Positions 15,814 to 34,172 of a stretch of DNA of 64,000 bases are shown piece by piece. The stretch is from Candidatus Pacearchaeota archaeon (GTDB lineage Archaea > Nanobdellota > Nanobdellia > Pacearchaeales > GW2011-AR1): assembly GCA_017609915.1 (NCBI GenBank), contig JAFCDA010000001.1, forward strand, positions 5,033 to 69,032, read 5' to 3'. The notes under the pieces were generated by a model that saw nothing but the letters and a program-made list of their open reading frames with translations, was not told where the DNA came from and searched no databases. Positions within the stretch are counted from its first letter, which is position 1. The number at the start of each line of letters is the position of its first letter. The position numbers were made by a program, and so were the translations under genes.

Positions 15814-16686
15814 ATGTTAAAAAGAATAAAAAAAAGAATAAAAAAAAGAATAAGAAAGATAATGAAAGGGTCTTTTTTACATCTAATATTTGAGTATAAA
15901 TGGTATCTTATCAATAGGGCGGCATTAAGAAGATTATTAAAAAAGAATTATAAAAAAAATTTCAAACAACTTCAACCTTCTTCAAAAGTTGCTATTCTTT
16001 TTTTAGGAACCAGGACATATGTTAATCTTTTTCCAAATTATTATAAAAATATAAAAAAATATTTTTTACCAAATATAAAAAAATATTTTTTTGTTTATAC
16101 AGACCAAGTAGATTATCCTTTTTTGTCAAAAAAAGATGTTATTGTTGTTCCTATTAAACATAGAAAATATCCTTTGCCTATGCTTTATACATTTAAATCA
16201 ATAAATAAAGCAGCTGATAAATTAAAAAAATATGACCATATAATCTGGTTTGATGCAGATATGATTGTCAATAGGGTGGTTAAAGAAGAAGAGTTTTTTT
16301 GCCATGATAAACAATTATTTGGGGTCAGACATCCAAATTTTTTAGCTAGAAAAGGAACTTTTGATAATAATCCTAAATCATTAGCTTATGTTCGACCTGA
16401 AGATAATTCTTCTATTTATTATCAAGCTTGTCTTTGGGGAGGTCAATCTAAACCTTTTCTTAAACTATTAAAAGAATTAGAAAAAAGAGTAGATATTGAC
16501 TTATCAAAGAATATTCGTTCAAGAATTTTAGATGAATCTTATTTAAATAAATATTTTATAGAAAAAAAAGATATCACACATGCATATGACCCAACCTATG
16601 CTTATCCTAAAAATCAACCTATTCCCCAACCTTTTAAAAAAAAGATTTTGCATGTTGATTTTAAAAAACATAAAATAATTAAGTGA
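15814..16686 (+). CDS. GT6 family glycosyltransferase (ABO / alpha-1,3-Gal(NAc) transferase-like), DxD type
   Basis: Colinear motifs with vertebrate ABO transferases: FFVYTDQ (HYYVFTDQ), IIWFDADM (VCVDVDM), LFGVRHPNF (LFGTLHPGF), AYVRPEDNSSIYY..LWGG (AYIPKDEGDFYYLGGFFGG), LDESYLNKY (HDESHLNKY). Confidence 0.8.
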   Translation: MLKRIKKRIKKRIRKIMKGSFLHLIFEYKWYLINRAALRRLLKKNYKKNFKQLQPSSKVAILFLGTRTYVNLFPNYYKNIKKYFLPNIKKYFFVYTDQVDYPFLSKKDVIVVPIKHRKYPLPMLYTFKSINKAADKLKKYDHIIWFDADMIVNRVVKEEEFFCHDKQLFGVRHPNFLARKGTFDNNPKSLAYVRPEDNSSIYYQACLWGGQSKPFLKLLKELEKRVDIDLSKNIRSRILDESYLNKYFIEKKDITHAYDPTYAYPKNQPIPQPFKKKILHVDFKKHKIIK

Positions 16687-17823: not shown

Positions 17824-18911
17824 TTCCTTTTGGAAATTTAAAAAAACATTATAGTTTAATAAAATCTAATATTGATAAAGCTATATCTGATGTTTTGCAA
17901 GGAGGGTGGTTTATTTTAGGAGAAACATTAAAATCATTTGAAAAAGAATTTGCAGAGTATTGTGGCAAGAAATATGGGGTTGGTGTTGGAAATGGGACAG
18001 ATGCTTTATTATTAGCATTAAAAGCGTACGGAATCAAGCAAGGTGATGAGGTGATAAGTGTTCCAAATACAGCTATTCCAACAATTTCGGCTATTGTTAG
18101 TTCTGGGGCAAAGCCTGTTTTTGTAGATGTTGGTGAAGATTATTTAATAGATGTTAATAAAATAGAGGCAGCTATAACTGAAAAAACAAAAGCAATTATG
18201 CCTGTGCATTTATATGGTCAAGTTTGTGATATGGAACCTATATTAAAAATAGCTGAAAAATATAATCTTCATGTTATAGAAGATTGTGCACAATCTCATG
18301 GAGCAGAATATAAAGAAAAAAAATCTCCTATTGGAGAAACTGGATGTTTTAGTTTTTATCCAAGTAAAAACTTAGGTGCTTTTGGAGATGCAGGAATGAT
18401 TGTGACAGATAATGAAGACTTAGCAAAAAAATTAAGAATGTTAAGAGATTATGGAAAATCAGAAAGAAATAGTGCTAAACTTCATGGATATAATAGCAGA
18501 TTAGATGATATTCAAGCAGCAATATTAAGTGTTAAATTAAAATATCTTGATATGTGGAATAATGAAAGAAGAAAAATTGCTTTTATATATGATATTTTAT
18601 TAAAAAATAATTTTAAAATCCCTATAGAAAACAAAAATAACAAACATGTTTATCATTTGTATGTTATAAAAACAGATAAAAGAGATGAATTACAAAATTT
18701 TTTGAAAAATAAAGGAATTGGAAGTGTGATCCATTACCCAATACCAATCCATTTACAACCTGCTTATGAATATTTAGGATATAAAGAAGGAGATTTTCCA
18801 AAAGCTGAGCAATATGCAAGTGAAATTCTTTCATTACCTATTTTTCCTGAATTAGAAAATGAAGAAATTCAGGAAGTTGTTAAGGTAATTAAAGAGTTTT
18901 TTGAAAATTAG
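17820..18911 (+). CDS. DegT/DnrJ/EryC1/StrS family PLP-dependent sugar aminotransferase
   Basis: GGWFILGETLKSFEKEFAEYCG..GNGTDAL and PLP-lysine region SFYPSKNLGAFGDAG. Confidence 0.85.
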   Translation: MIPFGNLKKHYSLIKSNIDKAISDVLQGGWFILGETLKSFEKEFAEYCGKKYGVGVGNGTDALLLALKAYGIKQGDEVISVPNTAIPTISAIVSSGAKPVFVDVGEDYLIDVNKIEAAITEKTKAIMPVHLYGQVCDMEPILKIAEKYNLHVIEDCAQSHGAEYKEKKSPIGETGCFSFYPSKNLGAFGDAGMIVTDNEDLAKKLRMLRDYGKSERNSAKLHGYNSRLDDIQAAILSVKLKYLDMWNNERRKIAFIYDILLKNNFKIPIENKNNKHVYHLYVIKTDKRDELQNFLKNKGIGSVIHYPIPIHLQPAYEYLGYKEGDFPKAEQYASEILSLPIFPELENEEIQEVVKVIKEFFEN

Positions 18912-19023: not shown

Positions 19024-19932
19024 ATGAATGGAGAAAATTTTTTTAAAAAAAGCTTAATAAAGTCTTATAAAATAGTTAGGGATAGATTTAGTAAATATGG
19101 TTTTGGGAATTTTTATTTTGTTAGAAAAATTAATGCAACTTTTTTAAAATATGTGACGCCTAATTTAATAATAATTAAAGGACATAAAATGTTTTTAGAC
19201 CCCTCAGATTCTTTAAGGCTATCAATATATGGTAATCATGAGACAAATGAAAAAGAGATTTATAAAAAATATATTAAAAAAGGAGATGTTGTTTTAGATG
19301 TTGGAGCCAATATAGGGTATGATACTTTGATTCTTGCAAAACTTGTTGGTAAAAATGGCAGGGTTTTTGCTTTTGAACCAGGCCCGATTAATTTTCAATT
19401 ACTTGAAAAGAATATTAAAATTAATGAATATAATAATGTAACTTTAGTAAATAAAGCAGTTTCAAAAGATAATAAATCGATTAAATTATATTTAAATGAA
19501 ACTAATGGGACAGGACATAAAATAGATGATATAAGTAATTTAGGTGTTAAACTTAACAGAAAATCAATCGATATAGAGTCAATTAAATTAGATGATTTTT
19601 TAAAGAATAAAAAAATTAAAAAAATTGATTTTGTTAAAATAGATGTTGAAGGTTCAGAAAGTGAAGTAATTAAGGGAATGAATAATATTTTTAAAAACAA
19701 TAAATCTTTAAAAATGATATTAGAATTTACTCCTGGTGCACTTAAAAACTATGGAAAAGACCCTAAAAAATATTTAAAAGAATTTATTTCTAAAGGATTT
19801 AAATTATATGAGATACCAGATAAAGGTTCTTTTGATAAAGATAAAATACCAATAAATAATGATAAAGATATTCATGATTTATTAAAAAGATGGGGCAAAA
19901 GTGGAACAAATCTGTTTTGTATAAGGGATTGA
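19024..19932 (+). CDS. FkbM family methyltransferase
   Basis: VLDVGANIGYDTLILAKLVGKNGRVFAFEPGPINFQLL motif of FkbM-type MTases. Confidence 0.75.
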   Translation: MNGENFFKKSLIKSYKIVRDRFSKYGFGNFYFVRKINATFLKYVTPNLIIIKGHKMFLDPSDSLRLSIYGNHETNEKEIYKKYIKKGDVVLDVGANIGYDTLILAKLVGKNGRVFAFEPGPINFQLLEKNIKINEYNNVTLVNKAVSKDNKSIKLYLNETNGTGHKIDDISNLGVKLNRKSIDIESIKLDDFLKNKKIKKIDFVKIDVEGSESEVIKGMNNIFKNNKSLKMILEFTPGALKNYGKDPKKYLKEFISKGFKLYEIPDKGSFDKDKIPINNDKDIHDLLKRWGKSGTNLFCIRD

Positions 19933-20001: not shown

Positions 20002-20973
20002 ATGAAAAAAAAGGAAATTCCTGTTTCATTGGTTATGCTTACTTTTGAGATAGATAAAACTGAACCAGCAATTAGAAATGCTCTTGAACAAGATTATCCT
20101 AATAAAGAAATAATTGTTGTAAATGACAATCCAAAATTAAAAATTCCTGATTCTATACTTAAATTAGAAAAACAACGTAAAATTAAAATTGTAAATAATG
20201 TAAAAAATCTTGGTATGGCAGGAAGTTTAAATGCAGGAATCAAGGCTTCAAAAACTAATACAATATTATTTACTTGTCATGATTATTTTTTTGAAAGTAA
20301 TCAATGGATTAGACATATTGTAGAAAAACTTTATTCTGATAAAAAACTAGGAACTATTGGTTCTGTTGTTAGATTGCCTATAGAAGAATGGAAAAATTAT
20401 AGTTTCTTAAACAAACTTTTTACATTTAGGCATATGCTTAAACCATCACGTAATTTACATAGTTGTTATAAAAGAGAGGTATTTAATAAATTAGGATTAT
20501 TTGATTCAAAAAATTTTAAGCGTGGTGGAGAAGATGGAGATTTTTATTCTAAGGTTATAAAAGCCGGGTATAAAACAGGGTGTATTGAAGATAGCCTAAT
20601 CCATAAACATTATAATAAAGATGATAGTTTATTAAAAATACTTAGAAAAGAATATGAGTATGGAAGATCTCATGGAGCACGTAAAAGAAAAGATGGTCTT
20701 TTTTCAAGACTGGGTTTATTTGATTTTGAAATTCGTATTTTACTTATACTAGGATTTATAATGGGTTTATTTATTCATCCTATAATAAGTTTTCTTTATT
20801 TTTTGCCTTTCTTTTTTGTAGCTTTATTTAAGTGCATTAAAGCATATCCTCAAACAAAATGGATTCCTGGATTAATTCTTTCTCCTTTTGCAGGAGTACT
20901 TATTTTATTAATCCAAACTATTGGGGCAACAAAAGAATATTTAGTCCTTCCTAAAACTAAAAGCAAAAAATAA
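20002..20973 (+). CDS. GT2 family glycosyltransferase with C-terminal membrane helices
   Basis: VSLVMLTFEIDKTEPAIRNALEQDYPNKEIIVVNDNP GT-A N-terminus; two C-terminal TM helices. Confidence 0.7.
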   Translation: MKKKEIPVSLVMLTFEIDKTEPAIRNALEQDYPNKEIIVVNDNPKLKIPDSILKLEKQRKIKIVNNVKNLGMAGSLNAGIKASKTNTILFTCHDYFFESNQWIRHIVEKLYSDKKLGTIGSVVRLPIEEWKNYSFLNKLFTFRHMLKPSRNLHSCYKREVFNKLGLFDSKNFKRGGEDGDFYSKVIKAGYKTGCIEDSLIHKHYNKDDSLLKILRKEYEYGRSHGARKRKDGLFSRLGLFDFEIRILLILGFIMGLFIHPIISFLYFLPFFFVALFKCIKAYPQTKWIPGLILSPFAGVLILLIQTIGATKEYLVLPKTKSKK

Positions 20974-21051
20974 AAGTGTTAAAATTATCTAGATCCTAGA
21001 TATAGATTTCACAACAATAAATCTTTTAAAGGGTTTAAACAAACTTAATCT

Positions 21052-22473
21052 ATGAAAAAAGTGATATTAATGTATCCTAATTGTAGGTGGAAAAAAGGGT
21101 TTGAAAATAAAACCATATGGAACCTTCATCCTTATAATCTTTGTTTACTTTCTGCAATGATAGAACAAGATTATGAAACTAAAATAGTAGATACTAATAT
21201 TGATGATATATCTAAAGAAGATTTTGTAAAGATTATAGAAGAATATAAACCAGATATAGTTGGAATTTCAGTTCTTACAAATGAATATTTAGATTCTGGT
21301 TTAATTGCTGCAGAAATAGTTAAATCAATAAATTCTGAAATAAAAACAGTTATAGGAGGGGTTGCAACTTTTGATCCTGAATCTATAATTAAAAATGAAA
21401 ACATTGATTATGTTGTAGTGGGTGAAGGAGAATTTACTTTTAAAAAATTATGTAATCATATTTTTAGTGATGGAGATTTGCCATCTAAAGGCCTTGTTTT
21501 TAAAAAAGATGGAGAAATAATAAATCTTGGTCGTTCAGATTTTATAGAAGATTTAGATAGTCTTCCTTTTCCATCATATGATAAAGTTGATTATTTAAAA
21601 TATGCTAATTCAATTCAAAGAGAAAGTGTAGATAGCCCAAGAGAAATGCCTTATGCAAACATAATAACATCAAGAGGCTGTCCTTATAATTGTTGTTTTT
21701 GCCAGGCTGGAAAAATTTCTGGTAAAAAACCAAGGTTTCGTAGTGTAGAAAATATTCTTAAGGAAATTAGTTGGTTAAAAGAAAAATATGGAATAAAAGC
21801 TCTTATTTTTGATGATGATAATCTTCTTGTTGATAAAGAAAGAGCTAAAAATTTATTTAGGGGAATGATTGATAGAGGATTTAATCTAAAATGGAATGCT
21901 ATTGCTATGGCTGCATTTAAATTAGACGAAGAAATGATAGATTTAATGAAAAAAAGTGGATGTCAATATGTAGATATTGCTATTGAATCAGGTGTTGAAA
22001 GAGTACTTCATGATATTATTCATAAACCTTTAAATTTAGAACATGCAAGAGAAGTTCGAGATTTATTAAAAAAATATGAGATTGATTTTGCTGCAAATTT
22101 TATTATGGGATTTCCAGGAGAAACCTGGGATGAAATTAGAAAAACAATTAAATTTGCAGAAGAATTTGATGCAGATTATACTAAAATATTTATTGCAACA
22201 CCTTTACCAAACACAGAATTATATGAAGTTGCCAGAGAAAAAGGTTATTTAAAAGAAAATTTTAGTTTTGATAAACACTTATGGACTGATGGATGGATAG
22301 AAACTGAAGAATTTCGTCCAGAAGATCTAAAAATCTTAAGGGCATATGAATGGGATAGGATAAATTTCTCAAGCCCAGAAAAAATAAAAAAAATTATCTC
22401 TATGATGGACATTAGTGTAGAAAGACTTAATGAGATAAGAAAAAATACACGCAAGAGGGCAAACCCTCAATAA
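21052..22473 (+). CDS. B12-binding domain radical SAM protein
   Basis: Cobalamin-binding N-domain (VILMYPN...VGISVLT..GG) then SRGCPYNCCFCQAG radical SAM motif. Confidence 0.8.
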   Translation: MKKVILMYPNCRWKKGFENKTIWNLHPYNLCLLSAMIEQDYETKIVDTNIDDISKEDFVKIIEEYKPDIVGISVLTNEYLDSGLIAAEIVKSINSEIKTVIGGVATFDPESIIKNENIDYVVVGEGEFTFKKLCNHIFSDGDLPSKGLVFKKDGEIINLGRSDFIEDLDSLPFPSYDKVDYLKYANSIQRESVDSPREMPYANIITSRGCPYNCCFCQAGKISGKKPRFRSVENILKEISWLKEKYGIKALIFDDDNLLVDKERAKNLFRGMIDRGFNLKWNAIAMAAFKLDEEMIDLMKKSGCQYVDIAIESGVERVLHDIIHKPLNLEHAREVRDLLKKYEIDFAANFIMGFPGETWDEIRKTIKFAEEFDADYTKIFIATPLPNTELYEVAREKGYLKENFSFDKHLWTDGWIETEEFRPEDLKILRAYEWDRINFSSPEKIKKIISMMDISVERLNEIRKNTRKRANPQ

Positions 22474-22483
22474 ACTTTATAAA

Positions 22484-23134
22484 ATGAGTCCAAATTTAAA
22501 AAATCTTTCAGATGAAGAAAAAGAAATTAAGATGATTGAGTTTGTAAAAGAGATTGTTGAATTATGGGAAGCTGCAAAAATACCTTATCCTATTCATTTT
22601 AGTGGGGGAAATGAAAAAGAATTAATTAAAATCTTTTCTGAAATTAAAGAAGGAGATTATGTTTTTTCTACGCATAGGGGGCATTATCATTATTTATTAA
22701 AAGGTGGAGATTTTGAAAAGTTAAAAGAATTTATTTTAAGAGGAGATAGTATGCATATTTTTGATAAAGATTTAAAATTTCTTACATCTGCTATTGTTGC
22801 TGGAACTCCCTCTATTGCTGCAGGAGTTGCTTATGCTTTAAAAAAGAAAAATAGTGAAAATAAAGTATGGTGTTTTATTGGAGATGGGGCAGAAGATGAA
22901 GGGCATTTTTATGAAGCAGTTAGGTATGTTGATGGATGGGATTTGCCATGCACATTTATTATAGAAGATAATGATCGGTCTGTTGAAACTCCAAAAAGTG
23001 AAAGATATGGAAAATCTCAAATTCAGTGGCCATCATGTGTTAGAAGATATATGTACAAGCCAAAATATCCTCATGTAGCAACTGAAAATTGGGTTGATTT
23101 TTCAGGAATGAAAGCTGGAGGTCCTTCTTTTTAA
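22484..23134 (+). CDS. thiamine-diphosphate enzyme E1-alpha-like PP-domain protein (truncated, 216 aa)
   Basis: STHRGHYHYLLKG (YRxHG-like) and TPP-binding IGDGAEDEGHFYEAV...FIIEDNDRS (GDG-x-NN-like); stop overlaps next start (TAATG). Confidence 0.6.
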   Translation: MSPNLKNLSDEEKEIKMIEFVKEIVELWEAAKIPYPIHFSGGNEKELIKIFSEIKEGDYVFSTHRGHYHYLLKGGDFEKLKEFILRGDSMHIFDKDLKFLTSAIVAGTPSIAAGVAYALKKKNSENKVWCFIGDGAEDEGHFYEAVRYVDGWDLPCTFIIEDNDRSVETPKSERYGKSQIQWPSCVRRYMYKPKYPHVATENWVDFSGMKAGGPSF

Positions 23135-24774
23135 TGAAATATAAAGAATTAATTAGTGAAGAAATGAAAAAATTAGCAAAAAATGATAAAACTGTCTTTA
23201 TAGGATATAATATTAAAAGAGGTTCAAAAGCTTATGGGACCTTAACAGATGTTCAAGATAAATGTATTGAAATGCCCCTTGCAGAAAATTTAATGACAAG
23301 TTTTGCTATTGGCATGTCTTTAGAAGGCTATAAACCAGTAGTTTTCTTTGAGAGACAAGATTTTATTTTAAATGCCTTAGACTCTATTGTTAATCATTTA
23401 GATAAAATTAAAGAAATGTCTAAAGGAGAATTTGAAACTCCTATAATAATCAGAGCCCCTGTAGGCGGCAAAAAACCTTTAGATCCTGGGATGCAGCATA
23501 CTCAAGATTTTAGTGAGGTATTGAAAAAAATTATTAAATTTCCAGTTTATGAATTAAAAACTGAAGAAGATTTTGCTAATTATTCTAAAATTATTCAAAA
23601 TATAAAAGAACCAACCCTTTTTATAGAGTATAAGGACCTTTATGGAAAAGAAATTGAGCAAAAAGAAAAAATAATTCTTGATAGTCATAAATTAATCTGG
23701 CATACAGAAAGAGTTAATGCATGGTTAAGAGGAGAAAGAATTGCTCCTATAACAATAGATTGCGCATTAACCAGGAGATGTAATTATAGATGTACTTATT
23801 GTTATGGACAATTACAAGCAAATGATGAAAAAAAGATGACTTTAGAGGTAATTCAAAGATTTTTAAAAGATGCTTCTGAAATAGGGGTAAAAGCTGTAAG
23901 TTTTGTAAGTGATGGAGAAAGTTCATGCTCTCCTCATCTTTATGATTCAATAATTTATGGGAAAAAACAAGGACTAGATATGGCTCTTGGAACAAATGGG
24001 TCTTTGCTTAAAAAAGAAGGGCTTAAAGAAGCAATAGAGTGCTTAACCTATCTTAGATTTAATATTTCTGCTGGAGAAAAAGAACGATATAAAGAAATAC
24101 ATGGATGTTCTGATTTAGATTATGATAAAACAATTGAAAATATTAAAGAATGTGTAAAAATAAAAAAAGAAAATAATTTAGATGTTACAATTGGTTTACA
24201 AATGGTTCTCATGTCTGAATTTAAAGACCAAATAATTCCTTTAACAAAATTAGGAAAAGAACTAGGAGTTGATTATTTAGTTATTAAACATTGTAGTGAT
24301 GATGAAGAAGGTAGTTTAGGAATAGATTATGATAAATATTTTGATAAAGATTTAATTGAAAAAATAAAAGAAGCTGAATCTTATTCAGATGAAAATTACT
24401 TAGTTAAAGCAAAATGGTCAAAAATCTTAAGTGGGGGAAAAAGAAATTATTCACGATGTTTTGGACCTCCTTTTATCTTACAGATGTCTGGTTCTGGATT
24501 AGTTGCTCCTTGCGGAATGTTTTTTAATGATAAATATGAAAAATATCATATTGGAAATATAGCTGAAAAATCTTTTAAAGAGATTTGGGAAAGCGATAGA
24601 TATTGGGAAGTTATGGATTTAATTGCTTCTGAAGATTTTGATGCAAAAACAATGTGTGGAACTTTATGCTTGCAGCATAAAGTAAATGAATATCTCTGGG
24701 ATTTAAAAGATAAAGGGGTAACTAATATAGATGTACCAGAAGGAGAAGCTCCAATGCATCTTAATTTTATTTGA
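23134..24774 (+). CDS. fusion protein: E1-beta/transketolase Pyr-domain-like N-terminus + radical SAM/SPASM domain
   Basis: N-terminal ~190 aa match E1-beta Pyr domain (CIEMPLAENLMTSFAIGMSLEGYKPVVFF...IIRAPVGG); then CALTRRCNYRCTYCYG radical SAM and C-terminal Cys-rich SPASM-like region (CFGPPF...APCG). Confidence 0.7.
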   Translation: MKYKELISEEMKKLAKNDKTVFIGYNIKRGSKAYGTLTDVQDKCIEMPLAENLMTSFAIGMSLEGYKPVVFFERQDFILNALDSIVNHLDKIKEMSKGEFETPIIIRAPVGGKKPLDPGMQHTQDFSEVLKKIIKFPVYELKTEEDFANYSKIIQNIKEPTLFIEYKDLYGKEIEQKEKIILDSHKLIWHTERVNAWLRGERIAPITIDCALTRRCNYRCTYCYGQLQANDEKKMTLEVIQRFLKDASEIGVKAVSFVSDGESSCSPHLYDSIIYGKKQGLDMALGTNGSLLKKEGLKEAIECLTYLRFNISAGEKERYKEIHGCSDLDYDKTIENIKECVKIKKENNLDVTIGLQMVLMSEFKDQIIPLTKLGKELGVDYLVIKHCSDDEEGSLGIDYDKYFDKDLIEKIKEAESYSDENYLVKAKWSKILSGGKRNYSRCFGPPFILQMSGSGLVAPCGMFFNDKYEKYHIGNIAEKSFKEIWESDRYWEVMDLIASEDFDAKTMCGTLCLQHKVNEYLWDLKDKGVTNIDVPEGEAPMHLNFI

Positions 24775-24938
24775 ATAAAAAATAATCTTAAAATATTAAA
24801 AGGTAACTAAATAATATCCATATCTTGATAAGAATAACGAGTGAGAAAAAGATTTGTAAAGCTTTAAAATGAGTAGAGATTCAAGATGGTTTGCATAACT
24901 TAAAGATATAATAAGATTCCAGTAAATAATATAAAAAA

Positions 24939-25997
24939 ATGGCAGTAGATAGTAAAATTGACGGGCATAAATTAATCCTGCATCCAAAAAGGGTGGCTGA
25001 ATGGAAAGAAAAAGGAGATTGTTATCCAATATATATTGAGATAGGTCCTACAAATATATGTAATCATAGATGTATTTTTTGTGCTTTAGATTATCTTGGA
25101 CATGAAGGATTTAATATAGACACAGAACTTATGATTAATACCTTAAAAGAAATCGGGGAAAAGGGTGTTAAATCTATAATGTTTGCCGGAGAAGGAGAAC
25201 CTCTTGCGCATAAAGATATTGGATTATTTGTTCAAACAGCAAAACAATCTGGAATAGATGTTTCTATTACAACAAATGGGGTATTATTTAATAAAGAAAA
25301 AGCAGAACAATTTCTTCATCATTTATCTTGGATAAGGTTTAGTATTGATGCTGGAACTTCTGAAACTTATAATAAAGTTCATAGAGGGGGAGAAAATGAT
25401 TTTAACAAAGTTATAGAAAACATAAAAAATGCTGTTGAAATTAAAAAAGCAAAAAATCTAAACACTGTGATTGGAATTCAGTTTTTAATGATTCCTGATA
25501 ATCTAAATGATGTTCTTAAACTTGCTCAAATAGCAAAAGATATTGGGGCAGATAATTTGCAAATAAAACCTTATTCTCAGCATCCAAAAAGTGAAAATAG
25601 TTTAGTACTATATTATGAAGATTATGCGCATTTAGAAAAAGAACTTGAAAAGTTTAATTCACCTGATTTTAAAATCTTCTTTAGAAAACAGACAATGCAA
25701 AGAGTTGAACAAGGAATCAATTATTCTGGATGTCATGGGCTTCCATTTTTTGCTCTAATAGATGCAAAAGGAAACATAATTCCATGCAATCTTTTTTATG
25801 ATATTCCAGAATTTACATATGGAAATTTACATGAAAACAGTTTTTCAGAAATTTGGAAAAGTGAAAAAAGACAACAAGTTTTACAAAGAATAAGAGAAAA
25901 AGGAATTGAAGATTGCAGACATGCATGTAGATTAGATGTTATTAACAGATATTTACAAAGATTAAAAAATCCTCAATCACATGATAATTTTGTGTGA
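24939..25997 (+). CDS. radical SAM/SPASM domain protein (paralog of C-terminal half of preceding gene)
   Basis: IEIGPTNICNHRCIFCALDY radical SAM motif; C-terminal GCHGLPFFALIDAKGNIIPCNLFYD..ENSFSEIWKSE parallels SPASM region of 23134..24774. Confidence 0.8.
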   Translation: MAVDSKIDGHKLILHPKRVAEWKEKGDCYPIYIEIGPTNICNHRCIFCALDYLGHEGFNIDTELMINTLKEIGEKGVKSIMFAGEGEPLAHKDIGLFVQTAKQSGIDVSITTNGVLFNKEKAEQFLHHLSWIRFSIDAGTSETYNKVHRGGENDFNKVIENIKNAVEIKKAKNLNTVIGIQFLMIPDNLNDVLKLAQIAKDIGADNLQIKPYSQHPKSENSLVLYYEDYAHLEKELEKFNSPDFKIFFRKQTMQRVEQGINYSGCHGLPFFALIDAKGNIIPCNLFYDIPEFTYGNLHENSFSEIWKSEKRQQVLQRIREKGIEDCRHACRLDVINRYLQRLKNPQSHDNFV

Positions 25998-26067
25998 TTG
26001 AGTTAACAAATCATAACTACGGAAAATTTTTAAATGAGGTATCAATTAAATAAAAATAATAAAAAAG

Positions 26068-27015
26068 ATGATGAATAAAGTATTAATTATAAAAACTGGG
26101 TATTCTGAGGTTTTAGATAGAAGAAATAATTCAAGAGTAGTAAGTTTTGGAGATGTATTAAGAACAACTCCATTATTACATCTTTATAAAGACAATCATA
26201 TAACTTGGGTCACAGATGAAAAAGCGATTCCATTACTTAAACACAACCATTTAATTAATCGTCTACTCGTTTTAGATTTTATTTCAATATCTCAATTACA
26301 AACAGAAGAATTTGATGTTGTGATAAATCTTGAAAAAATTCCTGGAATATGTGCACTTGCAGACAAAATAAGAGCAAGAAGAAATAGATATGGATTTACT
26401 TTTAATAGTCAAACTGGAGAAGCAGAAGCATATGATAAATCCCATGATATCCTTAGCCTGAGTACAAATCAAGAATTAAAAAGAAGTAATAAAAAAACTG
26501 CCCAAGAACTTTTATTTGAAATAGTTGGGGAAGAATGGAAAGGGGAAGAATATGTTCTTGGATATCAACCTAAAACAGAGGAAAAATACACTGTTGGTTT
26601 AAACAGCATTGTAGGACTTAAATGGCCAACTAAAGCCTGGCCAGCAGAAAATTGGGATGAATTAACTGAAATATTAAAAAATGGAGGGATAGTAGTAAGC
26701 AGACAAGACCAACAACCTAAAGAAACATTAACAGACCTCTTTAAGTATATGGATTGGATAAATTCTTGTAAATTAATTGTTAGCAATGATAGTCTTGGAA
26801 TGCATTTGGGAATAGCATTAAAGAAAAAAATTTTAGGATTATTTGGAGCAACATCTCCTTATGAAGTGCATTTTTATGGTGATGGAAAACCAATTATGCC
26901 AAATCCTATCCCAAGTTGTTTACCTTGTTTTAGAGGTTCTTGTGAAAGAAGAAAAAATTGTATAAATGAGATTACTCCTGAAAAAGTATATCAAGAGATT
27001 AGGAAGCTTATATAA
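26068..27015 (+). CDS. GT9 family glycosyltransferase (heptosyltransferase-like) with C-terminal Cys4 motif
   Basis: KVLIIKTGYSEVLDRR...FGDVLRTTPLLH GT9 N-terminus; C-terminal CLPCFRGSCERRKNC. Confidence 0.65.
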   Translation: MMNKVLIIKTGYSEVLDRRNNSRVVSFGDVLRTTPLLHLYKDNHITWVTDEKAIPLLKHNHLINRLLVLDFISISQLQTEEFDVVINLEKIPGICALADKIRARRNRYGFTFNSQTGEAEAYDKSHDILSLSTNQELKRSNKKTAQELLFEIVGEEWKGEEYVLGYQPKTEEKYTVGLNSIVGLKWPTKAWPAENWDELTEILKNGGIVVSRQDQQPKETLTDLFKYMDWINSCKLIVSNDSLGMHLGIALKKKILGLFGATSPYEVHFYGDGKPIMPNPIPSCLPCFRGSCERRKNCINEITPEKVYQEIRKLI

Positions 27016-27066
27016 AATATATTCAATAAGAATCATCTTTAAAAACAAATCTTTTTTGCAATAAGA

Positions 27067-28032
27067 ATGAATAAAAAAGATTTAGAAACATATGGTTCTG
27101 GTTTATTAGATTTTCATACTCATTCAACTTTCTCTGATGGGGGAGATACCCCAACACAACTTGTAGAAAGAGCTAAAAAACAGGGGGTTACTGCAATGGC
27201 TTTAACAGACCATCATGGTCATAAAGGATTACCTGAATTTATAGCTGCATGTAAGCAATATGATATATTTCCAATACCTTTTGGAGTTGAAATTGCTGCA
27301 GAACTTCCTGAAAAAGTTTTAACACCACAAGATATGTCTTCTCCTGATTTAATTATTCTTGGAAAAAATCCAAATGTAAAACCTATGAAAGGATATCAAG
27401 AAATATATTTTAATGATTTGGAAAAAAGGCATTTACCTGAAATATTAGCTGGATTAAGAAAGGTTGGTTTTGAATTACCTGTTGTAAATCTAAAAGAACA
27501 ATGTGCTTCTTTTCATGCTCCTCCAGATATACTTCATGATTTTGTTCATTATAAAAAAAATATGCAAGTTTTAAAAAATTATGTTAAAACAAAGGATTCA
27601 AATGTTAGTGATGCAGACATTGAAAAAAAACCAATAGCATTTGCTAATAGATGGTTATATGCTGTAGGTATGCCTGCTTATACAGCAAGATTTAAAGGTT
27701 TTAGCCTTGATAGTGCACTTCAATTAGTTGAAGAGATGAACTGTAAACTATTTATTGCACACCCTGGAGGAGATTATGGGTTTTTAACAGATGCTATGTT
27801 AAATTATTTTACTGAGAAGAAAATCCATGGAATTGAGATAAGAAGTTATCTTAACAGCCCTGAACAAAATGCTAAATTTGATAAATTAGCTAAAGAACAC
27901 AATCTAATAAGATCTGGAGGTTCTGATTGTCATGGTGCCAAGGGGCCTTTTAGAATGGGAATATATGATCGTCCACAAAATCAACTTCCTAAAGATGTTT
28001 TAGAAGAGCTTATGGACTGGTTGCCTTCTTAA
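27067..28032 (+). CDS. PHP domain metal-dependent phosphoesterase
   Basis: LDFHTHSTFSDGGDTPTQLVERAKKQGVTAMALTDHH PHP motif I/II. Confidence 0.7.
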   Translation: MNKKDLETYGSGLLDFHTHSTFSDGGDTPTQLVERAKKQGVTAMALTDHHGHKGLPEFIAACKQYDIFPIPFGVEIAAELPEKVLTPQDMSSPDLIILGKNPNVKPMKGYQEIYFNDLEKRHLPEILAGLRKVGFELPVVNLKEQCASFHAPPDILHDFVHYKKNMQVLKNYVKTKDSNVSDADIEKKPIAFANRWLYAVGMPAYTARFKGFSLDSALQLVEEMNCKLFIAHPGGDYGFLTDAMLNYFTEKKIHGIEIRSYLNSPEQNAKFDKLAKEHNLIRSGGSDCHGAKGPFRMGIYDRPQNQLPKDVLEELMDWLPS

Positions 28033-28224
28033 TTATTAGTTTAAATTCTTTCTTCAACATTATTCTCTAAAATATATATCTTTCCTACAATAGTTTTTTT
28101 AAAGGAGTTTTTATAATCTTTAATATCCTTAATTTAAAACTATCACATATAAAACTTAAAGTTCCACACCTCAATTGTGTATAACTTGATTATGTAAAGA
28201 TATTGAATTAATAAAATAAAAAAG

Positions 28225-29136
28225 ATGGACCCAATACAAATCCCTCAAGGTTACAATTATATATCTGCATTTTTAACAATGAGATGCAATCTTAATTGTA
28301 GTTTTTGCTTAAATTCAATTGACAAAAGCAGAGAATTTAATAGGACAAAATTTAAAGAGCTTTCTGGAGAGCAATGGGTTAAAGCATTAAATAGGATTGA
28401 ATCACGTCCAGAAGTTCCAGTAACCTTTTCAGGAGGAGAGCCTTTTTTACATCCAGATTTTCTTTATATCCTTAAGAATCTTAAAAAAGATTTAAACATA
28501 GATATTTTAACTAATTTATCTTTTGAAGTAGCTGTTGAAAAATTTTTAAAAGAAATAGACCCAGAAAGAATAAAGAGAAATGTTCCTTATGCTTGTATTC
28601 GTGTTTCTTATCATCCAGAACAAATGGGAAATGGTGCAGAACTTATTGAAACAGTTAAAAAACTAAAAGATGCTGGATTTAGTATTGGTGTATGGAGTGT
28701 TTTATATCCTTCTTTTGAAAATCTCTCTGCAATAAATCAAATGCAATTTAGATGTATAGATGCAGGAATTGATTTTAGATTAAAAGAATATACTGGAACC
28801 TATAAGGGAGACTTATATGGAGATTATTCTAAATATTCTAACTCAGTTTTATCAAATAAATTAAAAAAATGCTTATGTAAGGGCTCTGAATTATTAATAG
28901 CTCCAAATGGAAATATTTACAAATGTCACAGTGATTTATTTAGTGAAGAATTTCCTATAGGAAATATTCTTGACCCTAATTTCCAAATTAAAAACGAATT
29001 TAGAAAATGTGAGAAATATGGTCAGTGCCATCCATGTGATGTAAAACTTAAGACAAATTATAAACAAGAATTAGGGAATACCTCTGTTGAAATAAAAGAA
29101 ATAGAAGATAATTCTCAACCGAAAGTTATAGTTTAA
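28225..29136 (+). CDS. radical SAM protein with SPASM-like C-terminal Cys cluster
   Basis: ISAFLTMRCNLNCSFCLNS CxxxCxxC motif; C-terminal CKGSELLIAPNGNIYKCHSD...CEKYGQCHPCD. Confidence 0.75.
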   Translation: MDPIQIPQGYNYISAFLTMRCNLNCSFCLNSIDKSREFNRTKFKELSGEQWVKALNRIESRPEVPVTFSGGEPFLHPDFLYILKNLKKDLNIDILTNLSFEVAVEKFLKEIDPERIKRNVPYACIRVSYHPEQMGNGAELIETVKKLKDAGFSIGVWSVLYPSFENLSAINQMQFRCIDAGIDFRLKEYTGTYKGDLYGDYSKYSNSVLSNKLKKCLCKGSELLIAPNGNIYKCHSDLFSEEFPIGNILDPNFQIKNEFRKCEKYGQCHPCDVKLKTNYKQELGNTSVEIKEIEDNSQPKVIV

Positions 29137-29223: not shown

Positions 29224-30840
29224 TTAAAATGTTTTTTTTATAGATTTTTTAACTAATTTTAAATCCTTAAATAATTTTTTTATAACTGATTTTATCACCA
29301 TTAAATCCTCTTTATCAAGAGAATGTGAAATAATTATTAAAGACAAGTAAAGTAAAATAAACAAAGAGGTTAAAATTATAATTGAAAAAACATTAATTGT
29401 AACTTTTTCTATTAAATAAAATAAAACTCCTGTTGGGATTATTGAAACTAAGATTATAGTAAACATCTTTCTTTTTAAAGGTATAAATGAAAGATGTTTT
29501 TTTGTTTGTATAATCAAAAGGGTATTTAAAAAGATTATAGATAAAACAGTTGCAAGAGAAGCTCCGATTAAACCATTTGAATTATCTAAAGAAAACAAAA
29601 CAGGTATTGGAACTAATATTGAATTTAATATTAAATTAACAATTGCAGATATAGATATATTAAACAAGATTAACTTAGATTTACCTAACATTGAAATAAG
29701 ATTTGTTGAAATCATAAATAATGCAGAAATAAATGTTCCAATTAGCAAAAATTTAAGGGCAATTTGTGCAATAACATATTGACTTCCAAAAAGGATATTT
29801 AATGATGCTCCTGAAAAAAAGAATATTAAAATAAAAATTGGAAGAATTGCCATAAATATCCATTTATTTACTTGTTTACTAAGCTGTTTGATTAAAGCAT
29901 TATTTTTTGCAGAATATTGTCTTGTTATAAGTGGAAAAAATAACTGCATAAATAATTGTGGGACAATCATTATAAGCATTGCAATTGGCACAGCTGCATT
30001 ATAAAACCCAACTTCTACTGCAGATTTATAATAACCTAAAGAAATAGTATCAATCCAATGAAAAATAATAGATATAGCTGCAAAAAATAATAATGGCCAG
30101 GAATATTGAAAAAACTCTTTACTAATCTTTGAATAATCTTTTTTCTCATAAGAACCAAAGATTTTATTTATTTTATTTTTACAAACTAAATAAGCAGCAA
30201 ATAATGTAAGAATTGAACCAGATATGTAAGACCAAACAACAGCATTTCCTCCTGAATTAAAACCTATGAAAATAAGAATTATAAGCACACCTACACGGAC
30301 TAAATTTTGAAAAATATTAAAAATAAAAGAATACCATCCAATCTTTTCAAACCCTCTAAGCACTGTGAGAAATATACTTGCAAGCATTACAGCAAGAATT
30401 GAAAAACTCATTATTTTTAGAAAAATAGAAAGGCTTGGATTATGAAATATTTGTATTGAAATAAAATCTGATAAACCAATTAAAACTATTGAAGCAATTA
30501 TCCCAGAGATTAAATAAAATCTCAGTGTTTTTCTAAATAAATACCTCATCTCATTAATCTTTTTTCTCTCTCTTAATAATGGGACAAATCTTAATAATCC
30601 ATCTACAAAACCAAAAGAAGCAATTGTGATAAAAAGAGGGATTACAGATAAAACAAGAGAAAATAATCCATAAATTTCTGGGCCATAATAACGAGCAATA
30701 ATTATCCTATAAGCATACATTAAAACTTTTGATAAAAAAAGTCCAATAAAAACAATAAAAGAAGATTTCATAATTAGTTTAAGAGATTTATTAAGCTGAT
30801 TTTCTCTTGTAATATGTTCCTGATTTTTCAAATGTTCCAT
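29224..30840 (-). CDS. polysaccharide/oligosaccharide flippase (MOP/Wzx family)
   Basis: 538 aa, about 14 TM helices, MATE-like Wzx architecture, located in glycan locus. Confidence 0.65.
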   Translation of the reverse strand: MEHLKNQEHITRENQLNKSLKLIMKSSFIVFIGLFLSKVLMYAYRIIIARYYGPEIYGLFSLVLSVIPLFITIASFGFVDGLLRFVPLLRERKKINEMRYLFRKTLRFYLISGIIASIVLIGLSDFISIQIFHNPSLSIFLKIMSFSILAVMLASIFLTVLRGFEKIGWYSFIFNIFQNLVRVGVLIILIFIGFNSGGNAVVWSYISGSILTLFAAYLVCKNKINKIFGSYEKKDYSKISKEFFQYSWPLLFFAAISIIFHWIDTISLGYYKSAVEVGFYNAAVPIAMLIMIVPQLFMQLFFPLITRQYSAKNNALIKQLSKQVNKWIFMAILPIFILIFFFSGASLNILFGSQYVIAQIALKFLLIGTFISALFMISTNLISMLGKSKLILFNISISAIVNLILNSILVPIPVLFSLDNSNGLIGASLATVLSIIFLNTLLIIQTKKHLSFIPLKRKMFTIILVSIIPTGVLFYLIEKVTINVFSIIILTSLFILLYLSLIIISHSLDKEDLMVIKSVIKKLFKDLKLVKKSIKKTF

Positions 30841-34122: not shown

Positions 34123-34172
34123 ATTTTGTTTTATCTGGTATCTTAATATCTTAAGCTGAATTGATGAGTGGC

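Follow-up and report, generated by a model that had tools for sequence, protein, structure and literature searches.

A ThDP and radical SAM gene cassette in a DPANN-archaeal surface-glycan island, best read as a compacted version of a widespread sugar-tailoring cassette

Two-carbon branching of sugars by thiamine diphosphate (ThDP) enzymes has been proposed for the E1-alpha/beta-like pairs AviB1/AviB2 and Pau11/Pau12 and demonstrated for YerE (PMC4753412), and in G. sulfurreducens the genes gmhB-hldE-GSU2086-gmhA-GT2 form a sugar operon (PMC5585712; PMC3495685). Here we describe a surface-glycan island of a DPANN archaeon in which ThDP subunits, radical SAM enzymes (rSAMs) and glycosyltransferases (GTs) are encoded together, in a window (the whole stretch of DNA that was analysed) of 64,000 nucleotides. 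The region is best read as the compacted form that a widespread and uncharacterised cytoplasmic sugar-tailoring cassette takes in a DPANN archaeon. A literature search found no paper describing the module, to our knowledge none of the core enzymes has been characterised to date, and none of them reached an NCBIfam equivalog cut-off.

The original prediction described positions 20002-29136 as an operon of nine co-directional genes with short or overlapping junctions. We find eight open reading frames there, matching the eight items that the prediction itself listed, all on the plus strand and together covering about 94% of the interval. The gaps between them are, in order, 78, 10, -1 (an overlap), 164, 70, 51 and 192 nt, so that the description of the junctions holds for five of the seven. 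The genes are indeed co-directional, but the block is larger than was claimed: it comprises 12 genes and begins at 15814, with four additional genes upstream (GT6-like, SDR, DegT and FkbM), and its 3' end converges on a Wzx-type flippase gene. The features are as follows, 23134-24774 being a single reading frame that encodes a two-part fusion protein.

13443..15155, minus strand: B12-binding radical SAM enzyme, 570 aa (Pfam B12-binding and Radical_SAM), divergent from the plus-strand run
15814..16686, plus strand: GT6-like glycosyltransferase, first gene of the run (Pfam Glyco_transf_6, 57.6 bits)
16750..17823, plus strand: SDR-family NDP-sugar epimerase/dehydratase (Pfam Epimerase 165 bits, GDP_Man_Dehyd 150 bits)
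17820..18911, plus strand: DegT/DnrJ/EryC1-type NDP-keto-sugar aminotransferase (PF01041, 403 bits), with a 4-nt overlap with the SDR gene
19024..19932, plus strand: FkbM-family SAM methyltransferase (Pfam Methyltransf_21; TIGR01444 113.5 bits, above cut-off)
20002..20973, plus strand: GT2 glycosyltransferase (Pfam Glycos_transf_2, 63.5 bits)
21052..22473, plus strand: B12-binding radical SAM enzyme (Pfam B12-binding 75.7 bits, Radical_SAM 98.5 bits; CPYNCCFC motif)
22484..23134, plus strand: short E1-alpha-like ThDP (PP-domain) subunit, 216 aa (Pfam E1_dh, 71.4 bits)
23134..23673, plus strand: E1-beta-like PYR domain, N-terminal part of the fusion protein (Transket_pyr 40.2 bits, residues 2-171)
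23674..24774, plus strand: 'anchor' radical SAM domain, C-terminal part of the fusion (Pfam Radical_SAM and SPASM; four-Cys auxiliary-cluster domain)
24939..25997, plus strand: paralog radical SAM, 352 aa (Pfam Radical_SAM 84.8 bits, SPASM 38.8 bits)
26068..27015, plus strand: GT9 (heptosyltransferase-family) glycosyltransferase (Pfam Glyco_transf_9, 60 bits)
27067..28032, plus strand: PHP-domain metal-dependent phosphoesterase (Pfam PHP, 53.4 bits)
28225..29136, plus strand: 303-aa radical SAM enzyme with six C-terminal Cys (Pfam Radical_SAM, 49.7 bits)
29224..30840, minus strand: Wzx/MOP-type polysaccharide flippase (Pfam Polysacc_synt 89.6 bits, Polysacc_synt_3), convergent with the run

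The domains originally assigned all score above the Pfam gathering score except the SPASM domain of the last gene, which is marginal (Pfam 20.5 bits against a cut-off of 21.5; TIGR04085 28.1 against 27) and is annotated, in precomputed data, in one of the 120 closest relatives of that enzyme. Catalytic motifs are intact, and every rSAM has the CxxxCxxC motif. Same-strand runs are by themselves weak evidence for a functional unit; it is the conservation of the core across genomes, together with gene fusions, which argues that this arrangement is not due to chance.

The core, consisting of the short E1-alpha, the E1-beta-anchor fusion, the paralog rSAM, GT9 and the 303-aa rSAM, is conserved as a unit. 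Its most conserved gene is the anchor, relatives of which occur in 585 species of many phyla, archaeal and bacterial ones being about 70% identical; among 1.84 billion, only 347 cluster representatives match at E<=1e-30, and the carrier organisms are all uncultured MAGs. Stand-alone proteins of 367 aa from Nitrospirota, Planctomycetota, Omnitrophota, Desulfobacterota, Patescibacteria and others are 70-77% identical to the anchor. The original prediction named scattered homologs as the outcome that would count against it; homologs of the core are instead syntenic in dozens of genomes of many phyla, in sister DPANN loci and in phages, GT9 and the 303-aa rSAM being found in one version only. Gene order and strand are fixed, the sister DPANN loci have the same gene set in shuffled order, and 19 tailed-phage contigs carry the same cassette partners. 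Co-occurrence was counted for genes lying no more than 6 kb from the anchor. Of 41 well-flanked genome loci, 37 have a ThDP PP-subunit, 34 both ThDP subunits and 33 the paralog rSAM. The paralog of the window is 43% identical to the anchor, and 52 of 83 loci have a separate ortholog of it (about 43% identity), encoded some 3.9 kb upstream of the anchor and in the same direction. GT9 orthologs adjoin the paralog rSAM in bacteria (45-51% identity) and reach 61-62% in DPANN loci; the 303-aa rSAM is present in all nine GT9 loci, and its orthologs in DPANN loci are 52-63% identical, while bacterial ones reach about 50% and phage ones 40-45%.

Independent gene fusions tie the parts of the cassette together. 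At least 12 proteins combine E1-beta with the anchor, and P0012 is a triple fusion of E1-alpha, E1-beta and anchor. Other fusions join the paralog rSAM to Transket_pyr (P0122), to a methyltransferase (P0183, P0220, P0229 and P0234) or to GT9 (locus L106, 7263-9290), and rSAMs of this clade to an ALS/YerE-type ThDP enzyme (P0465) or to a DegT domain lying between two of them (P0447); a CTP_transf_like cytidylyltransferase is fused to an rSAM in P0445 and P0451. The E1-beta, Transket_pyr and ALS/YerE-type fusions point to physical coupling of ThDP and radical SAM enzymes, and the CTP_transf_like, DegT and GT9 fusions, along with the GmhA-like, HldE-like and GSU2086-family genes that are linked to the cassette in related loci, point to a nucleotide-sugar substrate. 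We suggest, with about half of our belief, that a twitch-type rSAM makes a keto or deaminated nucleotide-sugar to which the ThDP enzyme adds two carbons from pyruvate, giving a branched or extended sugar of a surface glycan.

An alternative, also named in the original prediction, is that the SPASM-type rSAMs mature a peptide or protein, for example the sulfatase encoded at 11666-12874, and that the glycan genes are mere neighbours. The sulfatase gene does lie within the window, Pfam gives SPASM matches, NCBIfam models of PapB, StsB, WgkB, PqqE and tungsten-enzyme maturases match weakly, and the maturases SuiB, SkfB, anSME and CteB are Foldseek matches at about 1e-11. The closest fold to the anchor, however, is the nucleotide-sugar enzyme DesII (4e-15), and BlsE, viperin and MoaA also rank high. 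Maturase cut-offs are all missed widely (anSME, 34 against 349), the fusion partners are all sugar or ThDP enzymes, and the sulfatase is unlinked to the module in other loci. No small plus-strand ORF occurs in the gaps, and none is conserved over the 100+ loci examined. Moreover the anchor (Cys pattern CX3CX2C + CX17C...CX3C) has only four C-terminal Cys, a pattern common to the paralog, as against the seven of the SPASM motif. Peptide maturation is therefore largely refuted, and we regard it as very improbable. The glycan-type cluster originally proposed, coupling GTs to ThDP and sugar-acting rSAM enzymes, is supported by this result and by the synteny of the core.

The four-Cys region of the anchor resembles the BtrN twitch domain (E=0.014) and, with the DesII-like fold, supports keto-sugar chemistry. 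What were originally distinguished as three rSAM flavours comprise two close twitch-like four-Cys paralogs, a distinct 303-aa enzyme and a B12 type; the analogy drawn with GenK, Fom3 and AprD4 holds at superfamily level only (AprD4, 101 bits against a cut-off of 500). The original observation is thus partly confirmed, being real once corrected, and its interpretation partly supported.

The E1-alpha-like subunit matches positions 7-172 of the 300 of the E1_dh profile, and this short length is genuine because orthologs of 209-241 aa (66-75% identity) lie directly upstream of the fusion in loci L084, L105, L106 and L107; the ThDP-Mg motif GDGA-X26-EDND is kept. The PYR domain, which has no Transketolase_C domain, keeps the cofactor-activating Glu (in MPLAEN), forms a separate domain in the AF2 model with a disordered linker at residues 172-180, and matches PDH/BCKDH E1-beta in Foldseek (1w85_B, 1um9_B, 3exe_B). 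Such E1 subunits, cut down to a bare PP and PYR core with no E2/E3 nearby, could instead be a built-in electron source that leaves the sugar alone and oxidatively decarboxylates pyruvate, as pyruvate:ferredoxin oxidoreductase does. Electrons of the hydroxyethyl-ThDP enamine would then reach the radical-SAM cluster by way of the auxiliary Fe-S cluster, making the rSAMs independent of host flavodoxin or ferredoxin. A generic service role of this kind is suggested by ThDP domains on either paralog and by another ThDP family on rSAMs of the clade. ThDP linkage is also near-universal regardless of sugar-entry genes, and a self-sufficient reductant would be useful in the reduced-genome DPANN/CPR organisms and phages that carry the cassette. 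However, no known E1- or ALS-type enzyme reduces an Fe-S cluster of a partner protein, OFOR-type enzymes have their own clusters beside ThDP but the E1 parts of this system show no sign of one, and the bacterial versions are full-length PDH-like E1 pairs (E1-beta above the PRK09212 subfamily cut-off). The idea also leaves the fate of acetyl-ThDP unexplained, and the carboligase precedent of AviB1/B2 and YerE is simpler; we consider an electron source quite unlikely.

Three ThDP families (E1, short transketolase-like and ALS-like) occupy the same slot, E1 giving way to a short Transketolase_N/Transket_pyr pair in roughly a quarter to a third of the loci. This replacement would also suit a transketolase that moves a glycolaldehyde unit from one sugar phosphate to another, or else the ThDP enzyme might decarboxylate a 2-keto-acid sugar (a Kdo-/NeuB-type ulosonic acid). 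In either case a shortening or rearrangement of the carbon skeleton would precede or follow the radical steps. Decarboxylation of 2-oxo acids is natural to E1 enzymes, sedoheptulose-7-P is, as is well established, a substrate of both GmhA-like isomerases and classical transketolase, and NeuB-type synthases lie directly upstream of the module in six loci. Yet just one of the 41 well-flanked loci has NeuB within 6 kb, ulosonic acids exist largely in cyclic form and are not known to serve as E1 substrates, and the ALS/YerE-type fusion suits carboligation at least equally, so that this explanation too appears unlikely.

Outside the conserved unit, the PHP, GT2 (20002) and B12-rSAM (21052) genes are lineage-specific accessories. 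None of the related loci contains a PHP homolog; the enzyme is possibly a phosphatase of the sugar-activation route or a pAp/nucleotide phosphatase (best NCBIfam match 3',5'-nucleoside bisphosphate phosphatase, 78.9 against a cut-off of 400), and in sister loci lacking it an HD phosphohydrolase adjoins the fusion gene. GT2, with a C-terminal hydrophobic stretch at about residues 240-310, has one weak match in related loci; it is possibly the functional counterpart of the short 258-aa GT2 found beside the anchor in bacteria (63 loci by clustering; 33 of 41 within 6 kb). The B12-rSAM is probably a class B C-methyltransferase or rearranging enzyme (best NCBIfam matches HpnJ, 193.7 against 577.6, and Sden_1168, 193 against 575), and 12 of the 41 loci have B12-rSAMs no further than 6 kb from the anchor, at 23-31% identity to this one. 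The divergent B12-rSAM at 13443..15155, which reached no NCBIfam cut-off, is probably a tailoring methylase of the same island; in L105 and L106, two sister DPANN loci, its orthologs (51-52% identity) adjoin the fusion gene. FkbM, probably for O-methylation of the sugar, is not conserved among related loci, and the GT6-like gene has no homologs there and is therefore lineage-specific. The flippase has an ortholog of 42% identity in sister locus L084, and a flippase also adjoins the triple-fusion gene; GT2, GT9, Wzx and PMT_2 all occur among cassette loci, a further pointer to a nucleotide-sugar substrate.

According to the two-carbon-addition model, an invariant core of a two-subunit ThDP enzyme (PP + PYR) and two paralogous rSAMs, with one auxiliary Fe-S cluster each, would act on a nucleotide-activated sugar; domain content, intact motifs, synteny, co-occurrence and fusions are observed, and we infer the substrate, order of steps and product. 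In bacteria the substrate is probably a heptose-type sugar from the linked GmhA-like, HldE-like and cytidylyltransferase genes. These are absent from the window, where it may be a 4-amino/4-keto-6-deoxy sugar from the upstream SDR and DegT enzymes. Of 83 related loci, 26 have a homolog of the SDR somewhere inside the fetched flanks; DegT homologs (about 42% identity) occur in 20 related loci and also on phage contigs. Within 6 kb, SDR genes are found in 13 and DegT genes in nine of the 41 loci, so that a DesI/DesII-like entry is not general. Xylose-isomerase-like TIM-barrel genes, which also favour keto-sugar chemistry, are present within 6 kb in seven of the 41. A twitch-type rSAM would oxidise or deaminate the sugar to a keto-sugar without O2 or NAD, as DesII or BtrN do, and the ThDP enzyme would decarboxylate pyruvate and transfer the two-carbon (acetyl/hydroxyethyl) unit to the carbonyl, yielding a C-branched or chain-extended sugar, with the E1-beta-rSAM fusion perhaps channelling the unstable keto-sugar. 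Epimerisation, reduction or methylation by the second rSAM, the 303-aa rSAM, the B12-rSAMs and FkbM could follow, before the GT9 and GT2 enzymes attach the sugar to an acceptor, either a protein or lipid-linked, for export by the Wzx flippase to the cell surface.

Some points count against this model. Similarity to the DesII fold is at 14-16% identity, and the E-values of the peptide maturases SuiB, SkfB, anSME and CteB are only about 1000-fold worse. Anchor identities of 70-93% across phyla exceed what is expected of a peripheral glycan-tailoring enzyme, the mechanism assigns no specific role to having two paralogous rSAMs, and we know of no glycan with such a branched or extended sugar from any carrier organism. 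Known AviB1/B2-type systems, moreover, need no rSAM, because a NAD-dependent 4,6-dehydratase supplies their ketone. The most likely product of the cassette is an unusual branched or extended sugar built without oxygen.

The left half of the window, from 1 to 31 kb, is a surface-glycan island, and within it lies a cassette in which the two subunits of a ThDP enzyme (E1-alpha, the PP subunit, and E1-beta, the PYR subunit) are linked to two related radical SAM (rSAM) enzymes, here called the anchor and the paralog. The individual domain families are already known, as are glycan clusters with rSAM tailoring; the conserved and often fused ThDP-rSAM-rSAM core is new. The original prediction described a co-directional operon of nine genes at 20002-29136. 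The genes there do all lie on the plus strand, although the ORFs number eight, and Pfam backs the domain calls, the SPASM match of the last gene being sub-threshold:

20002-20973, plus strand, GT2
21052-22473, plus strand, B12-binding and Radical_SAM protein (B12-rSAM)
22484-23134, plus strand, short E1_dh protein of 216 aa
23134-24774, plus strand, Transket_pyr, Radical_SAM and SPASM fusion of 546 aa, the rSAM part of which (23674-24774) is the anchor
24939-25997, plus strand, Radical_SAM and SPASM protein (the paralog)
26068-27015, plus strand, Glyco_transf_9 (GT9)
27067-28032, plus strand, PHP
28225-29136, plus strand, Radical_SAM protein with a sub-threshold SPASM match (the 303-aa rSAM)

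Five of the junctions are short or overlapping, as had been claimed for all of them (78, 10, -1, 70 and 51 nt); the other two are gaps of 164 and 192 nt, neither of which contains a plus-strand ORF of 20 aa or more. The co-directional run truly starts at 15814, its upstream part encoding a GT6-like transferase, an SDR epimerase/dehydratase, a DegT aminotransferase and an FkbM methyltransferase, and it is closed by a convergent gene for a Wzx-type flippase (29224-30840). The island also encodes PMT_2, another GT9, GT2 and GT4 enzymes, two more B12-rSAMs, a sulfatase, a PAPS-reductase-like protein and a phosphodiesterase. Scans of 15200-31500 for sigma-70 promoters (105 sites against 104.7 expected, with a model that is not archaeal) and for intrinsic terminators (2 found against 4.4 expected) were uninformative. 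The GC content of the window is about 26%. Its S13-S4-S11-RpoD (Rpb3-type, 221 aa)-tRNA-...-L13 gene order is archaeal, as is its DUF655, and the closest relatives of the cluster proteins carry Nanoarchaeota or Pacearchaeota labels.

Several neighbouring genes deserve mention in their own right. A third B12-rSAM of the island, at 6493-8037 (minus strand), has a 49% identical ortholog in the sister DPANN locus L084, and a nucleoside 2-deoxyribosyltransferase-like protein is encoded at 3673-4080 (minus strand). The PAPS-reductase-like protein (10831-11592, minus strand) and the sulfatase-family protein (11666-12874, minus strand) might be connected to the PHP protein, if the latter is a 3',5'-bisphosphate (pAp) phosphatase. 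To the right of the island is a SecD/SecF-like pair (31557-33062 and 33169-34182, both minus strand), the 501-aa member of which has an N-terminal PDZ domain; the same pair adjoins the cassette on the contig of the relative protein P0012. It is followed by a DUF4956 protein (34540-35223, plus strand) and a 918-aa protein (35226-37982, plus strand), with counterparts in the Nanoarchaeota locus L106, a DUF4956 gene (67% identity) and a CotH gene (51%), after which a VTC-domain gene comes; this pair is a conserved neighbour block beside the glycan island. A solitary 5S rRNA gene (39781-39895, plus strand) lies beside tRNA-Leu (39626-39709, minus strand), and the 64-kb window has no 16S or 23S gene.

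The four rSAM proteins of the run, together with the one encoded at 13443-15155 (minus strand), score 49.7-98.5 bits against PF04055 (cut-off 29.5) and keep the CX3CX2C (CxxxCxxC) cluster motif. None of the eight proteins encoded at 20002-29136 reached an NCBIfam equivalog cut-off. The SPASM subfamily is defined by two auxiliary 4Fe-4S clusters and a C-terminal seven-cysteine motif, CX9-15GX4C...CX2CX5CX3C...C. Anchor and paralog pass the Pfam SPASM model (32.5 and 38.8 bits), yet each has only four C-terminal cysteines in a twitch-like CX17C...CX3C arrangement; the 303-aa rSAM has six cysteines and scores 20.5 against the cut-off of 21.5. The four-cysteine region aligns weakly with BtrN (E=0.014), the alignment being localised to the twitch domain. 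Judged from sequence, these features suggest that the C-terminal domain of anchor and paralog would hold one auxiliary cluster and be BtrN-like rather than a full SPASM domain. The anchor has two further invariant cysteines, C265 and C387 in the numbering of the fusion, which the paralog lacks.

A search of PDB sequences with the anchor profile returned nothing closer than MoaA/PqqE (about 4e-5). In the AlphaFold model of the fusion (mean pLDDT 84.4), a disordered linker at residues 172-180 is present; Foldseek matches the N-terminal domain to PDH/BCKDH E1-beta and the rSAM domain best to DesII (E=4e-15), followed at about 1e-11 to 1e-9 by SuiB, SkfB, anSME, BlsE, CteB, viperin, PqqE and MoaA. 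The original prediction had named a precursor peptide nearby, and closer kinship with the SPASM families of RiPP maturation, as what would speak against sugar chemistry. Neither was found: the gaps hold no small plus-strand ORF, no small ORF is conserved across the more than 100 loci examined, and scores against RiPP maturases (PapB, StsB, WgkB, PqqE and others) all fall far below their cut-offs. Every fusion partner, moreover, is a sugar or ThDP enzyme. Peptide maturation by the cassette rSAMs is thus largely excluded. Anaerobic sulfatase maturation, considered in view of the sulfatase in the window, was rejected, with 34 bits against an anSME cut-off of 349 and with the sulfatase unlinked to the module elsewhere.

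The cassette is widespread in uncultured lineages. Stand-alone 367-aa proteins from very different phyla share 70-77% identity with the anchor, and a scan with one genome per species found relatives in 585 species of at least 10 phyla, CPR and DPANN included, each represented by a MAG or single-cell assembly; among the groups are Nitrospirota, Planctomycetota (with anammox genera), Omnitrophota, Desulfobacterota, Patescibacteria, Nanoarchaeia, Elusimicrobiota, Latescibacterota and Gammaproteobacteria. When 1.84 billion representative proteins were searched exhaustively, only 347 matched at E<=1e-30; the top tier of these, about 15-20 clusters, are true anchor orthologs. Clustering of each neighbouring ORF in 83 loci yielded a canonical order on one strand: [GSU2086-family - cytidylyltransferase - HldE-like - SIS] - paralog rSAM - ThDP PP-subunit - ThDP PYR-subunit - short GT2 - anchor - [two small paralogous membrane proteins - B12-rSAM]. 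Of the loci, 41 are flanked by 6 kb or more on each side; among them the PP-subunit lies within 6 kb of the anchor in 37, both ThDP subunits in 34, the paralog in 33, the short GT2 likewise in 33, and both ThDP subunits together with the paralog in 29. Whether the block is conserved as a unit or scattered in related genomes had been posed as a test of the original prediction, and the syntenic core decides for a unit. A cassette was recognised by an anchor ortholog with more than 50% identity, matched to its own C-terminus, with a ThDP PP and PYR pair and a paralog rSAM on the same strand within a few kb. The window anchor, whose median identity to its bacterial orthologs is 70%, is fused to E1-beta, has E1-alpha next to it and is followed after 164 nt by the paralog.

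The 303-aa rSAM is present in all 9 of the well-flanked loci that have a GT9, and these two genes are mutually exclusive with the HldE-like kinase/nucleotidyltransferase (23 of the 41 loci), with no overlap; therefore two alternative versions of the cassette exist, and that of the window is the GT9/303-aa rSAM version. The GT9 adjoins the paralog in the window and in about a fifth of the loci. In the sister DPANN loci (L084, L105, L106 and L107) the same genes recur at 52-77% identity in shuffled order, and three of the four have an HD phosphohydrolase in the corresponding position. The window PHP has no homolog in any related locus examined, the GT2 at 20002 has essentially none, and counterparts of the B12-rSAM at 21052 are only 23-31% identical; these three genes are accessories. 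A tblastn search of the remaining window for HldE, SIS, the short GT2, the u172/u174 membrane proteins, GSU2086, NeuB and PMT2-type genes matched only the E1 parts. In bacterial loci (such as L003, 9813-10868, L009, L022 and L073) the two small membrane proteins, of about 172 and 174 aa, nearly always stand between anchor and B12-rSAM; they are paralogous (hhalign probability 95%), belong to no Pfam family, and might together make a heterodimeric component of a flippase-like or scaffold type. The window lacks both.

Unlike the core, the B12-rSAMs are a variable part of the cassette. The original prediction had likened the operon with its three flavours of rSAM to pathways with GenK, Fom3 and AprD4; the protein at 21052 does have the B12-binding and Radical_SAM architecture in a sugar context, whereas every named family is widely missed (HpnJ 193.7 against 577.6, Sden_1168 193 against 575, PhpK 134.7 against 600, AprD4 101.2 against 500). 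GenK, Fom3 and PhpK are class B (B12-dependent) rSAM methyltransferases from sugar or phosphonate pathways, and AprD4 is a related diol dehydratase. Phosphonate biosynthesis, an idea taken from the similarity to Sden_1168 and PhpK, was rejected, since neither the window nor the set of recurrent neighbour families includes a PEP mutase.

The thiamine enzyme of the window departs from a PDH E1, which has an E1-alpha of about 320-330 aa, an E1-beta with PYR and Transketolase_C domains, and E2/E3 partners. The window E1-alpha of 216 aa covers profile positions 7-172 of 300, the E1-beta part is a PYR domain only, scores are 89.8 against 393.85 (TIGR03182) and 66 against 321 (PRK09212), and the window contains no E2/E3 genes. 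It nevertheless has the motif GDGA-X26-EDND, and its PYR domain keeps the cofactor-activating glutamate; it is therefore a ThDP enzyme. A truncated pseudogene was ruled out by the same 209-241 aa form of E1-alpha in four sister loci.

Natural fusions tie the same activities together. E1-beta is fused to the anchor in at least 12 proteins, and in P0012 E1-alpha, E1-beta and anchor form one chain, adjoining paralog rSAM, SDR, flippase and B12-rSAM genes. The paralog is fused to a GT9 (L106, 7263-9290, a continuous 675-aa ORF), to Transket_pyr (P0122) and to a class-I methyltransferase (P0183, P0220, P0229, P0234). Further fusions join an rSAM to an ALS/YerE-type ThDP enzyme with a TPP_enzyme_N/M/C module (P0465), to a cytidylyltransferase-like domain (P0445, P0451), or to DegT followed by a second rSAM (P0447). 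Three ThDP families (E1, short transketolase-like and ALS-like) thus fill the same slot, and therefore the selected trait is ThDP chemistry beside an rSAM and nothing specific to E1. That the ThDP enzyme acts as a decarboxylase or transketolase we think improbable; that it serves the rSAM as a PFOR-like electron donor seems to us more doubtful still. From the nucleotidyltransferase, DegT and GT9 fusions one would expect a nucleotide-activated sugar with keto or amino intermediates.

Two other arrangements were seen among the relatives. In L105 (670-2739) and L107 (465-2555) a B12-binding rSAM is joined in one protein to the E2 catalytic (acyltransferase) domain of a 2-oxoacid dehydrogenase, and its neighbours are a phosphopantetheinyl transferase, FkbH_N, a MaoC dehydratase and an 80-aa ORF that is possibly a carrier protein; this fusion is a further tie between 2-oxoacid-dehydrogenase parts and rSAM enzymes. 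In addition, inteins (with Hint, Intein_splicing and LAGLIDADG domains) split P0391, P0406 and P0368 of the anchor/paralog clade; the usual sites of such elements are highly conserved, important proteins.

The anchor is also encoded on 19 IMG/VR contigs (L086-L104) at 45-68% identity, which PHROGs identify as tailed phages: a large terminase and a portal/adaptor gene are directly beside it in L091 (4008-9370), tape-measure proteins occur in L086 (14944-17100) and L088, and a portal in L103 (1162-3102). The fuller phage contigs have the ThDP pair and various of the paralog, 303-aa rSAM, SIS, HldE-like, SDR and DegT genes. Phage carriage fits the patchy phyletic spread and high conservation, and implies a role for the product at the cell surface in the course of infection.

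The best-supported model for the cassette is as follows. A twitch-type rSAM would turn a nucleotide-sugar into a keto-sugar by a DesII/BtrN-like radical oxidation or deamination, and the ThDP enzyme would then add a pyruvate-derived two-carbon unit to it. Other rSAMs and methyltransferases would tailor the product, and GT9/GT2 enzymes and the Wzx flippase would bring it to the surface. Two-carbon addition has been proposed for AviB1/AviB2 and Pau11/Pau12 and shown for YerE (PMC4753412). With GmhA-like, HldE-like and GSU2086 genes linked to it, the bacterial cassette may use a heptose-type substrate, and the upstream SDR and DegT suggest a DesIV/DesI/DesII-like entry in the window.

Radical SAM and ThDP enzymes are two of the main biological routes to difficult C-C and C-H transformations. 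It is conceivable, if unlikely, that here they act as one hybrid catalyst with chemistry that neither does alone: a sugar radical generated by 5'-dA might be captured by the hydroxyethyl-ThDP enamine (radical-polar C-C bonding), or ThDP oxidation of pyruvate might pass an electron through the auxiliary cluster to SAM cleavage, making a self-contained, pyruvate-powered rSAM. Such a hybrid would be a new enzyme class, spread horizontally, phages included, through anaerobic bacteria, CPR and DPANN. In the model of keto-sugar formation and two-carbon addition, the cassette would make branched or extended sugars with neither oxygen nor NAD, and many uncultured anaerobes would be predicted to display a sugar as yet unknown, which could bear on DPANN/CPR host-symbiont recognition, phage-host interactions and biomarker use. 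The literature searched contains no description of the cassette or of a dedicated ThDP-rSAM partnership on sugars, its useful precedents being only AviB1/AviB2 with YerE and the G. sulfurreducens heptose operon. The core genes of the cassette are without names, although relatives of the anchor occur in 585 species and tailed phages carry the cassette. We regard it as a probable nucleotide-sugar tailoring cassette that stands a real chance of bringing new enzymology, for which the natural fusions (ThDP~rSAM, GT9~rSAM, cytidylyltransferase~rSAM, rSAM~DegT~rSAM) are ready biochemical constructs with clear substrate hypotheses.

Among known systems, the ADP-heptose pathway comprises GmhA, HldE and GmhB with the GT9 heptosyltransferases WaaC/WaaF. 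Bacterial modules are embedded between GmhA-like, HldE-like, cytidylyltransferase and GSU2086-family genes, yet the SIS (101 against 209) and HldE-like proteins (156 against 521) are far below the equivalog cut-offs, and in the latter the domains come in the opposite order to those of E. coli HldE. The window GT9 passes Pfam (60 bits against 22) and misses the heptosyltransferase I/II/III equivalogs (45 against 185). GmhA/HldE-like genes, sub-threshold, occur in 23 of the 41 related loci, never in those with a GT9, and the window has none; its host, a DPANN archaeon, is without LPS. The linked bacterial GmhA-like, HldE-like and GSU2086 genes match the gmhB-hldE-GSU2086-gmhA-GT2 envelope operon of G. 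sulfurreducens, GSU2084-2088 (PMC5585712, PMC3495685).

AviB1/AviB2 of avilamycin and Pau11/Pau12 of paulomycin biosynthesis are pairs resembling PDH-E1 alpha and beta, and the proposal is that they use pyruvate to put an acetyl branch on C-4 of an NDP-keto-sugar (PMC4753412). The cassette shares with AviB1/AviB2 a two-subunit E1-type enzyme inside a sugar cluster, without E2/E3; bacterial cassettes carry full-length E1 pairs, and sugar genes lie all round the pair of the window. This likeness comes from gene context, and the cassette pair differs in being always linked, and sometimes fused, to rSAMs; its window form is reduced to an E1-alpha of 216 aa and the PYR domain of E1-beta. The hosts differ also, actinomycete antibiotic producers as against anaerobic uncultured lineages and phages. 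YerE, cited in PMC4753412, is the ALS-family ThDP flavoenzyme that adds the two-carbon branch in the making of yersiniose; it likewise performs a ThDP-dependent C2 addition to a nucleotide-keto-sugar, and an ALS/YerE-type module is fused to an rSAM in P0465; the window enzyme, however, is E1-type, and YerE is not known to have an rSAM partner.

The likeness to BtrN lies in the C-terminal CX(17-18)C...CX(2-3)C domain with its one predicted auxiliary cluster. BtrN is 2-deoxy-scyllo-inosamine dehydrogenase, the archetypal twitch-domain rSAM with a carbohydrate-like substrate, and by analogy an anaerobic oxidation of OH to C=O would supply the ketone needed by the ThDP enzyme; the similarity is marginal, and the anchor exceeds BtrN by about 100 aa and possesses the further cysteines C265 and C387. 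DesII, the TDP-4-amino-4,6-dideoxyglucose deaminase / TDP-quinovose dehydrogenase that acts with DesIV and DesI, is the best structural match of the anchor rSAM, yet at only 14-16% identity. The anchor has the extra four-cysteine auxiliary-cluster domain, DegT is missing from most bacterial loci of the cassette, and with the DesII model (TIGR04426) the paralog reaches 47.4 bits where the cut-off is 450. The DesIV - DesI - DesII gene logic is nonetheless mirrored by the SDR - DegT - rSAM of the window, and DegT stands between two rSAMs in the clade fusion P0447: the cassette rSAM is not a member of the DesII family, but one that may work like it.
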